Shown: piece after piece, positions 560 to 36,921 of the stretch
How the letters are laid out: every line of letters starts with the position of its first letter
How positions within the stretch are numbered: position 1 is the first letter of the stretch
Sequence record: OQ349392.1
Reading direction: 5' to 3' (one strand)
DNA from: Escherichia phage KIT06
DNA length: 64,000 nucleotides
Notes under the pieces: model-generated
Told to the model about the DNA's origin: nothing
What the model saw: the letters and a program-made list of their open reading frames with translations, nothing else
The model's database searches: none
Translations under genes and position numbers: made by a program

Positions 560-847
560 ATGAAAACTTTCAAAGAATTTACTTCTACAACTATCCCGGT
601 TTCTACTATTACTGAAGCTACTCTTACTTCTGAAGTTATTAAAGCAAATAAAGGACGAGAAGGTAAACCAATGATTAGTTTGGTTGATGGCGAAGAAATC
701 AAAGGTACTGTTTACCTAGGTGATGGGTGGTCTGCTAAAAAGGATGGTGCTACAATCATTATCTCTCCTGCTGAAGAAACTGCGTTGTTTAAAGCTAAAC
801 ACATTTCTGCGGCACATCTCAAGATTATTGCTAAAAATCTTTTGTAA
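560..847 (+). CDS. ipI: internal protein I (capsid-targeted; anti-type-IV-restriction IPI in T4)
   Basis: 95 aa; N-terminal MKTFKEF capsid-targeting-like sequence with I-T-E site at residue 19; C-terminus ...HISAAHLKIIAKNLL as recalled for T4 IPI. Confidence 0.6.
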   Translation: MKTFKEFTSTTIPVSTITEATLTSEVIKANKGREGKPMISLVDGEEIKGTVYLGDGWSAKKDGATIIISPAEETALFKAKHISAAHLKIIAKNLL

Positions 848-866
848 TAAATATTTCACAAAGTTG

Positions 867-895
867 TTTACATAGGGTTTTAGTTGTGATACTAT
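867..895 (+). promoter_or_regulatory. T4-type early promoter
   Basis: TTTACA-N17-TACTAT with upstream TTTCACAAAG element. Confidence 0.7.
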
Positions 896-923
896 TACCC
901 TATCAACTACTGAGGAGAATAAA

Positions 924-1196
924 ATGAAAACATTTAAAGAATTTATCAATGAAGCTACTTTTAACGAAAAAGTAAAAATTAGCAAAGCTGTCAAGACTAT
1001 GATTGATAACATCAATTACCTATATGGTATTGATTTAACTGACTATGTAACAGTTGGTAACAAACGTAACTATTTCGTGTTTGACATCTCTGAACTTGAC
1101 CAGAATCAAATTAACAACATTGAGCGTTTTGCTAATGATAAGGGTCTTCGTCATGAGTCAGCGGGTTATAAAAAATACGCAATTTATTTAAAATGA
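924..1196 (+). CDS. capsid-targeted internal-protein-like protein (CTS MKTFKEFINE)
   Basis: 90 aa; N-terminal 10 residues match the T4 internal-protein capsid-targeting sequence with I-x-E site; own early promoter and GAGGAGAATAAAATG leader. Confidence 0.55.
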   Translation: MKTFKEFINEATFNEKVKISKAVKTMIDNINYLYGIDLTDYVTVGNKRNYFVFDISELDQNQINNIERFANDKGLRHESAGYKKYAIYLK

Positions 1197-1197
1197 G

Positions 1198-1226
1198 TTT
1201 ACTTTTAAATAGGGTTGTGGTACTAT
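1198..1226 (+). promoter_or_regulatory. T4-type early promoter
   Basis: TTTACT-N17-TACTAT, TG-extended. Confidence 0.65.
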
Positions 1227-1256
1227 TACCTTATCAAAATTAATTAGGAAAATAAA

Positions 1257-1565
1257 ATGAAAACTTACCAAGAATTTATCAATGAAGCGGCTGCACCAAA
1301 GACATTCATTATTTATACTCAAGCGGGTCTTGATGATGAGTATGCGGAAGCAATTCTGAGGTCACTTGCTAAGAACGGCGTTGAAGTAATCGCCTCGGAC
1401 TTTAAGAAAGGGGCTTCCGAGCTGTTTATTTCTATAACTAAAGGATCTAAAGCTAAAATCAAATCATCATTCGGAGTTGCTCGTACCGATCAAATCGACA
1501 ATCATGACTTTAAACAAACTGGTGCTAAACGGCAGAACACAATTGCATCACGCGGAATAAAATAG
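1257..1565 (+). CDS. capsid-targeted internal-protein-like protein (CTS MKTYQEFINE)
   Basis: 102 aa; CTS-type N-terminus; preceded by AGGAAAATAAAATG leader identical to the one before ipI. Confidence 0.55.
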   Translation: MKTYQEFINEAAAPKTFIIYTQAGLDDEYAEAILRSLAKNGVEVIASDFKKGASELFISITKGSKAKIKSSFGVARTDQIDNHDFKQTGAKRQNTIASRGIK

Positions 1566-1576
1566 TTTATAAACCG

Positions 1577-1605
1577 TTTACTTTTAGATAGGGTAGTGAT
1601 ATTAT
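1577..1605 (+). promoter_or_regulatory. T4-type early promoter
   Basis: TTTACT-N17-TATTAT. Confidence 0.65.
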
Positions 1606-1633
1606 TACCCTATCAACTACTGAGGAGAATAAA

Positions 1634-1857
1634 ATGAAAACTTATCAAAAATTTATCGCTGAAGCTAAAAGACATGAAGATGAACTACCAATTGTTACGA
1701 AAACTTTTGATGGTACATTAAGTGATTTTAAAAAATTCCTAGCGATAAACTTTCTAAGTTAACTGGCTCTATTAGTGAAAAGGATGGTAAAGTCACGTTT
1801 TCTGCTCGTGGCACTGCTAATCTTAAAAAGCTTTTGAAAGCTGCTGGAGCGGAATAA
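1634..1857 (+). pseudogene. frameshifted CTS-type internal-protein gene
   Basis: ATG 1634 opens MKTYQKFIAEA... which stops at 1760-1762; the -1 frame continues from the A-run at 1730-1735 to a stop at 1855-1857 (…KLSKLTGSISEKDGKVTFSARGTANLKKLLKAAGAE). Confidence 0.5.
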
Positions 1858-3320: not shown

Positions 3321-3406
3321 GAATTATTTGTTATTATTAACTCATATCGCATTGATTAATACCCTCTATCATCAAGGGTTCTTTCCTGAGAGCCTTTGTT
3401 AATAAT

Positions 3407-36573: not shown

Positions 36574-36745
36574 AATTAACGCAGGATTTACTGAATCTTT
36601 GAATGGTCATCTTTGTGTGAAAATTTCTGAAAAAGAATACCATGATAGTTCAATTAAAGAAGTTAATCCTCCTATTGTAAGAGCAGACCCTAATATGAAA
36701 GTGTGGGTTGATTCTTATCAAGTCAAAAAATGGTGGCAACTGTGA
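36542..36745 (+). CDS. hypothetical small protein
   Basis: ATG 36542 overlaps upstream gene by 32 nt; start uncertain. Confidence 0.3.
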   Translation: MLTHVKFKRLKINAGFTESLNGHLCVKISEKEYHDSSIKEVNPPIVRADPNMKVWVDSYQVKKWWQL

Positions 36746-36921
36746 AAGATGAACACCAGACTTCTGAAATAGATTATAATAAAATTCGTTCCTCTAAAGT
36801 AGAAATGATGAGACGCTTTAAAGAGGCTCATGATAAAGCTAAAGCAGAAGGAACTATAACGTATAAGCGTATTAAATTTAGAAGCTCTAATGAGCCTCTG
36901 TACGGTGTATTATGCGGATAG
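36730..36921 (+). CDS. hypothetical small protein
   Basis: 63-aa ORF. Confidence 0.4.
   Translation: MVATVKDEHQTSEIDYNKIRSSKVEMMRRFKEAHDKAKAEGTITYKRIKFRSSNEPLYGVLCG

Follow-up and report, generated by a model that had tools for sequence, protein, structure and literature searches.

The window analysed here, 64,000 nucleotides from Escherichia phage KIT06 (OQ349392.1), begins with gene 57B (positions 32-487), which is followed by four short genes (560-847, 924-1196, 1257-1565, and 1634-1762), each starting with MKT[F/Y][K/Q][E/K]F; on the 3' side of these lie homologues of trna.4, trna.3, and trna.2, and then a tRNA cluster from about position 3400. According to megablast, the locus is that of Tequatrovirus phages, with EP01 being 99.5-99.6% identical over the region. 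The features considered below are the following:

32-487: gene 57B, matching Pfam Acb1 (anti-CBASS nuclease, 7.8e-60)
560-1565, plus strand: the intact upstream cassette members taken together (ORFs, PHROG and Pfam matches)
560-847, plus strand: IPI (Pfam IPI_T4, 2e-53)
924-1196, plus strand: Ip9-like gene (PHROG "internal head protein")
1257-1565, plus strand: Ip7-like gene (PHROG "internal head protein")
1577-1605, plus strand: promoter-like site of the ip8 cassette (TTTACT, 17-nt spacer, TG-TATTAT), found by a consensus scan and of presumed function
1622-1627, plus strand: Shine-Dalgarno sequence GAGGAG, intact, 6 nt before the ATG and conserved in EP01, F13076, and UFV-AREG1
1634-1857, plus strand: the whole ip8 homologue as a frameshifted allele or pseudogene (224 nt, against 225 nt in relatives)
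1634-1663, plus strand: capsid targeting sequence (CTS) MKTYQKFIAE, 10 codons, with Tyr4 and Phe7 at the targeting positions and Ile8-Ala9-Glu10 as the L/I-X-E cleavage motif of gp21
1634-1762, plus strand: the ORF as it stands, 42 amino acids and a stop (TAA 1760-1762)
1730-1735, plus strand: run of six A (A6), the site of the one-base deletion according to the alignments and the blastn gap list
1735-1857, plus strand: the stranded C-terminal 40 codons of Ip8 and the stop (IPSDKL...AAGAE*), in the -1 frame relative to ATG 1634

The ip8 gene is the last cassette of a 57B(Acb1)-IPI-Ip9-Ip7-Ip8 array located upstream of the tRNA cluster, and the order IPI-Ip9-Ip7-Ip8-trna.4 is common to KIT06, EP01, and UFV-AREG1. 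A leader of ~70 nt is repeated before ipI, ip9, ip7, ip8, and trna.4; its elements are GTTTAC, TG-n-TA(C/T)TAT after a 17-nt spacer, and a ribosome-binding site of GGAG type, and the alignment of the five leaders revealed the conservation of GTTTAC ... GTGATACTATTACC ... GGAGAATAAAATGAAA. Moreover, 57B/Acb1 adjoins IPI, a member of the GmrSD inhibitor family (PF11634), at positions 32-847, and the array of ip cassettes seems to sit in a counter-defence island.

The CTS of T4 is ten residues long; positions 4 and 7 determine targeting, positions 8 and 10 determine processing, and the prohead protease gp21 cleaves after L/I-X-E (PMC9026906). The N-terminus MKTYQKFIAE fits these rules, and the protein obtained by repairing the frame matches phrog_8765, "internal virion protein", with an E value of 1.4e-26, so that the preliminary description was right in calling this a CTS-type gene. 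The homologue is annotated as ip8 or Ip8-like in RB15, VR5, and Merlin; in RB15 (Z35082) it is named ip8 and comes after ip5, ip9, and ip7. The KIT06 copy shares with the family the homology over the full length, the position in the ip array with its repeated leader, and a CTS ending in L/I-X-E, and departs from it in that, in place of an uninterrupted ORF of about 72-74 codons, there are 42 codons followed by a stop. Judged by its sequence, the gene at 1634-1857 is a member of the Ip8 family of internal-protein cassettes endowed with a CTS.

The frame opened by the ATG at 1634 encodes MKTYQKFIAEAKRHEDELPIVTKTFDGTLSDFKKFLAINFLS, whose residues 1-34 are those of wild-type Ip8 and whose residues 35-42 (FLAINFLS) are out of frame, while the frame ending with the TAA at 1855-1857 reads KIPSDKLSKLTGSISEKDGKVTFSARGTANLKKLLKAAGAE (41 amino acids). 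The stop after 42 codons had been noticed from the DNA letters, together with a -1 frame thought to be open from 1726 to 1857; the end of the latter at 1857 and its reading as the rest of a small protein, here of 74 amino acids, stood, whereas its start did not, as a TAA at 1729-1731 leaves this frame open only from 1732. The late opening is harmless to the reading because the switch must fall within the A-run. This run, preceded directly by TTTT (1726-1729), is the homopolymer at 1730-1735 that had been pointed out as the switch point; the closest relatives have seven A (A7) where KIT06 has six.

The chance of encountering 41 stop-free codons at about 35% G+C is, by our own arithmetic, about 5%. 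Probing the window with the 74-aa protein of EP01 (tblastn) retrieved two abutting pieces in two frames, the first aligning EP01 residues 1-35 with positions 1634-1738 (97%) and the second aligning residues 32-74 with positions 1726-1854 (98%). The two-frame split of ip8 thus exceeds chance, the tblastn pieces being more decisive than the arithmetic of stop-free codons. Furthermore, the addition of one A to the sequence yields a 74-aa protein 100% identical to that of EP01 (UIU46887.1). An independent translation of the 3' half was also considered and rejected, as positions 1732-1857 contain no ATG, GTG, or ribosome-binding site.

We then checked the state of the gene in related genomes. In an alignment of 13 sequences, the window reads TTTT-AAAAAA-TTCC at the site, where A7 is present in EP01, vB_SsoM_113, F13076, UFV-AREG1, RB15, SH_GT, and Klebsiella phage F48; in the dhakaviruses and Mineola the sequence is A6+G and stays in frame, and Merlin lacks a run here. 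The ip8 gene of EP01 is an intact ORF of 225 nt, identical to the window at every base except for the missing A, and that of vB_SsoM_113 differs from EP01 and KIT06, the run apart, only in the first 16 nt, within the CTS. This last difference (window 1634-1650 versus vB_SsoM_113 1501-1517) gives a CTS beginning with MKTYQKF in KIT06 and MKSFKEF in vB_SsoM_113; the order of the cassettes in the latter is also different (Ip5-Ip8), while over the mature part of ip8, KIT06, EP01, and vB_SsoM_113 agree base for base. On sequence grounds, such a pattern is consistent with recombination breakpoints within the repeated leader/CTS.

The search was extended with blastn and tblastn. The 224-nt ip8 query retrieved 108 records by blastn, with a span of 225 nt in all 60 matches listed; a query from the Dhakavirus branch gave, among the matches listed, spans of 225 or 222 nt, and 226 nt in phage C6. 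Overall, the spans were of 225, 222, or 219 nt, phage C6 (226 nt) excepted, and in the about 90 phage records inspected they were divisible by three in all but phage C6. Probing with the 74 amino acids (tblastn) retrieved 107 phage records, each covering at least 80% of the protein and with 78-100% identity, the match being in one piece in all the 60 records listed out of 107. The intact homologues to which the preliminary description proposed to compare the gene clearly exist. The amino-acid identity is 78-89% across Tequatrovirus, Dhakavirus, Jiaodavirus, Marfavirus, and Moonvirus, and the family being intact across genera at this level argues that the intact gene is maintained by selection. 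The two-frame layout at this A-run was not found in any other genome among the 105-108 records matched, about 90 of which were inspected, nor among 18 protein clusters. An exact-pattern scan of IMG/VR, which holds few ip8 loci, retrieved two unrelated chance matches only for the A6 allele and one VR5-like contig for A7. A separate variant was observed on an ENA contig of 3,830 bp (protein P0016): a 65-aa Ip8 in which an in-frame deletion of nine residues (KKIPSDKLx) removes exactly the region of the A-run.

In the published annotation of KIT06, the 42-aa stub is the hypothetical protein KIT06_00016 (WCS66761.1), listed as ORF 137 in the table of the KIT06 paper and representing the sole member of its protein cluster. 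ORFs 136-141 of that table match the ORFs of the window base for base, and ORF 137, at 71818-71690 in the paper, corresponds to positions 1634-1762 of the window (x + y = 73452), which puts the A-run at 71722-71717 in the coordinates of Table S5. Two neighbouring proteins of the window are likewise exact matches, to KIT06_00015 and KIT06_00021. The 156 nt at 1763-1918, devoid of any feature in the published annotation, contain the 3' half of ip8 and the leader of trna.4. The annotation can be corrected in this sense: the "hypothetical protein" KIT06_00016 is the front half of ip8, and its back half lies in the unannotated 156 nt.

Taken as a whole, the gene is very probably an ordinary and recent homopolymer frameshift (A7 to A6) in a known gene, whose function would have been lost or strongly reduced. 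The suggestion of a "recently inactivated cassette member" made in the preliminary description fits the data: the missing A is all that distinguishes the gene from that of EP01, and its promoter-like site and Shine-Dalgarno sequence are intact.

The first point to be weighed is whether the phage really carries A7 and an intact ip8, with one A having been dropped from the consensus during sequencing or assembly. The lesion falls in a homopolymer and alone separates the gene from that of EP01, relatives with a disrupted gene are rare, and the blastn gap list contains several other one-base run-length differences from EP01, in which the window is usually the shorter. These other differences, however, are intergenic or located at ORF edges, and when 265 EP01 ORFs (of at least 40 aa) were searched against the 64-kb window by tblastn, ip8 alone turned out to be split over two frames, none of the other 264 being so. 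At an Illumina depth of 153x, a 7-mer seldom acquires an indel in the consensus. The KIT06 genome was obtained by Illumina MiSeq 2x301 sequencing and SPAdes assembly with a mean coverage of 153x (reads under PRJNA1101219; PMC11274021). This coverage, together with the lack of any other frame-split EP01 ORF in the 64 kb, favours a real deletion; we consider an error of this kind unlikely and a deletion present in the sequenced stock highly probable, a recent and real loss of one A from A7 being the more likely of the two. The KIT06 lysate may also hold a mixed A6/A7 population.

One of the run-length differences was checked individually. At the a-gt.3/a-gt.2 junction (36730-36921), the window has CC at 36758 versus CCC in EP01; from the usual ATG of a-gt.2 (36749) only 7 codons are open, and the start of the ORF is instead the ATG at 36730, with another N-terminus. 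The CC form is also found in P922 and IME340 and, by this comparison, reads as a natural polymorphism and not as an error. A window-wide signature of homopolymer errors was consequently rejected, given that no other gene is split and that the difference at 36758 is shared with other phages.

Two further A-run frameshifts were encountered in ip8. In phage C6 (MW679410, 2417-2642), the gene reads GCTAAAAAAACAC, with A7 where IME08 has A6, that is, a +1 insertion at codons 12-13, and the record annotates only a 46-aa C-terminal ip8 fragment (QVW28295.1). In the metagenome scaffold ERZ28621216 SMIT22-1 scaffold_18 (171,815 bp; 601-801), it reads CTTAAAAACTTTTGA, with A5 where the relatives have A6 at codons 65-66; the product ends with NLKNF*, having lost the last 8 residues, and is carried by three contigs.

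These alleles might be taken as the traces of a switch. According to one version, the A6 allele would act as a dosage or phase switch, with -1 slippage on the in-frame AAA AAA providing wild-type Ip8 in a reduced amount and replication slippage reverting the run to A7, and the three alleles would be snapshots of this process; we regard it as very unlikely. If it were true, the ip8 A-runs would allow T4-like phages to adjust, or to switch on and off, an injected protein with a possible anti-defence role. In another version, ip8 would be a phase-variable contingency locus, whose A-runs are kept mutable in order to switch the injected protein reversibly. Indeed, A-run frameshifts are seen in three independent alleles of ip8, each at another run (KIT06, C6, and the metagenomic scaffold), and A-runs are the classical frameshift hot spots of T4, as in rII and in the slippage model of Streisinger. 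Yet the tract is not conserved, Merlin having no run and the dhakaviruses and Mineola breaking it with a G; frameshifts are infrequent among cultured phages, with KIT06 and 1 of about 90 records, and show no clear excess over ip7, used as a control (0 of about 58 sampled); and AAA would be simply the preferred Lys codon of a Lys-rich protein in a genome of 35% G+C. A contingency locus is therefore most unlikely, and the recurrence of A-run frameshifts agrees with hypermutable runs in a gene that is rich in Lys, weakly selected, and part of a 35% G+C genome.

The preliminary description had also raised the possibility of a slippage-dependent gene, in which full-length Ip8 would be produced at a fixed short:long ratio by transcriptional slippage or programmed -1 frameshifting. 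Exactly the wild-type Ip8 would result from a -1 slip on U_AAA_AAA, the tRNA-Lys of E. coli is slippery on AAA-AAA (PMC1851650), and both frames are otherwise undamaged; EP01 being identical, though, this lack of damage can be read as a consequence of recency. The two-frame arrangement is unique to KIT06 among the records and clusters surveyed above, and the site does not form a canonical X_XXZ_ZZN heptamer: in the zero frame U_AAA_AAA, the slip leaves a cognate A-site part (A_AAA), while the P-site part (U_AA) is not XXX; a near relative of this motif, C-AAA-AAA, is nevertheless active in E. coli (PMC1851650). No stimulatory hairpin follows the site, as the predicted folding of the 80 nt past the run does not surpass that of shuffled sequences (z = +0.66) and the folding of the whole gene likewise revealed no frameshift stimulator; no SD-like sequence was seen 10-14 nt upstream of the run. 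As for transcriptional slippage, the run of 6 A falls far short of the roughly 9 nt from which slippage becomes efficient or is counter-selected, about 9 or more being the length in most bacteria (PMC1088944). With a layout that is not shared, no downstream structure, and too short a run, an evolved recoding arrangement is unsupported and exceedingly improbable.

This does not concern an incidental leakiness of the allele. In E. coli, an in-frame C-AAA-AAA gave 25-60% of -1 frameshifting under T7 over-expression and with no known stimulator (PMC1851650), whereas in a systematic study unstimulated tetramer motifs were barely over background, at about 0.15% (PMC4066793). By analogy with these systems, the A6 allele of KIT06 may be slightly or appreciably leaky, with a very uncertain estimate ranging from 0.1% to tens of percent.

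The comparison with known systems places the KIT06 gene more precisely. The Ip8 of RB15 (Z35082; PHROG 8765) resembles the repaired KIT06 copy over its whole length (85% amino-acid and 82% nucleotide identity) and likewise stands at the end of the ip array, ahead of trna.4, with a CTS-type N-terminus; it belongs to the polymorphic internal proteins of T-even phages (Repoila et al. 1994, as reported in PMC3012670). RB15 and nearly all the other Ip8 copies encode 72-74 amino acids, whereas the KIT06 copy, without one A of the A7 run, encodes 42. With the internal proteins of T4, and the rules established on IPIII, MKTYQKFIAE shares an aromatic residue at each of positions 4 and 7 and the I-X-E of positions 8-10 (PMC9026906). 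The true homologue of T4 IPI lies three cassettes upstream of the KIT06 ip8 (Pfam IPI_T4), and between IPI* and the mature part of Ip8 there is no detectable similarity of sequence or fold. As to the mutation, the likeness with the A-run hot spots of T4 rII consists in the loss of one base from a 7-A run in a T4-type genome with a T4-type polymerase; the rII hot spots, however, emerged from a genetic screen, while KIT06 carries a fixed or majority allele in an accessory gene of a natural isolate. Finally, the attB1 C-AAA-AAA site of pDEST17 (PMC1851650), related to dnaX A-AAA-AAG, has in common with KIT06 a zero-frame AAA AAA and a single slippery tRNA-Lys, and there a -1 slip corrects a one-base deletion and gives the normal protein, as predicted for KIT06. 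It differs in that KIT06 has U before the run (not C or A), a phage promoter in place of T7 over-expression, and no stimulators.

The consequences for the protein were examined on an AF2 model of the intact Ip8, built with 16 homologues (pLDDT of 77.5 on average and of about 85 over residues 20-74). In the model, residues 1-14, which include the CTS, are disordered; after them comes a compact alpha/beta domain with strands at 20-26, 45-50, and 53-59 and helices at 37-42 and 61-71, a further short helix lying between the first strand and helix 37-42. With the frame broken at residue 35, the 42-aa product would retain the CTS and the first beta-strand, followed by eight unrelated residues, and on the model the domain could not form. 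Since the product keeps only the CTS and the first beta-strand, the function of Ip8 in KIT06 is expected to be lost or strongly reduced, although, from what is known of T4, its uptake into the prohead and its trimming could still be possible. The loss would be tolerated because internal proteins are dispensable on laboratory hosts, T4 mutants without all three IPs growing on standard laboratory strains (PMC9026906).

A Foldseek search of the Ip8 model against the PDB gave no significant match (best E value 0.22). The beta-alpha-alpha-beta-beta-alpha order of the model (residues 20-71; window 1691-1857) has weak KH look-alikes, PNO1 and PNPase in Foldseek (E 0.2-0.4) and a sub-threshold Pfam KH_PNO1_2nd match (E 0.086), and lacks a GXXG loop. 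The assignment of Ip8 to the KH domains was not adopted.

On these bases, we can depict the following scenario for a recent one-base deletion in KIT06. The ip8 gene is one of the polymorphic internal head protein cassettes that lie between 57B (Acb1) and the tRNA cluster, each of them self-contained, with its own promoter-like leader, ribosome-binding site, and N-terminal CTS. By analogy with T4 IPI-III, the intact 74-aa Ip8 would enter the prohead core by means of its 10-residue CTS, be trimmed by gp21 after Glu10, and then be injected with the DNA, possibly with an anti-defence role. In KIT06, the A7 run at codons 33-35 would have become shorter by one A, most likely by replication slippage of the kind classically seen at the A-runs of T4, so that the ribosome would read 8 wrong codons and stop at 1760. 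After the deletion, the zero frame reads UUU AAA AAA UUC, and a -1 slip on U_AAA_AAA would lead to AUU CCU AGC, the exact wild-type sequence; some full-length Ip8 may thus be made through a -1 slip of tRNA-Lys, as an incidental leakiness due to the accident of the deletion site rather than an evolved device.

For the KIT06 ip8, the gene family and the kind of mutation are already known and the genome has been published; the frameshift is no new recoding mechanism, and the mechanism itself matters little, being a textbook homopolymer frameshift in a non-essential and highly polymorphic accessory gene. IPI* is an injected inhibitor of the GmrS/GmrD restriction enzyme, and the variable internal proteins are regarded by reviewers as a set of counter-defence factors (PMC3012670). 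KIT06 provides a clean natural test case for the leakiness of an in-frame U_AAA_AAA in E. coli. Moreover, it is a natural Ip8-deficient or Ip8-low phage standing beside nearly isogenic intact alleles (EP01 and vB_SsoM_113), and the three phages together could be used to seek the function of Ip8, for instance in counter-defence, its gene lying near those of Acb1 and of the GmrSD inhibitor IPI.
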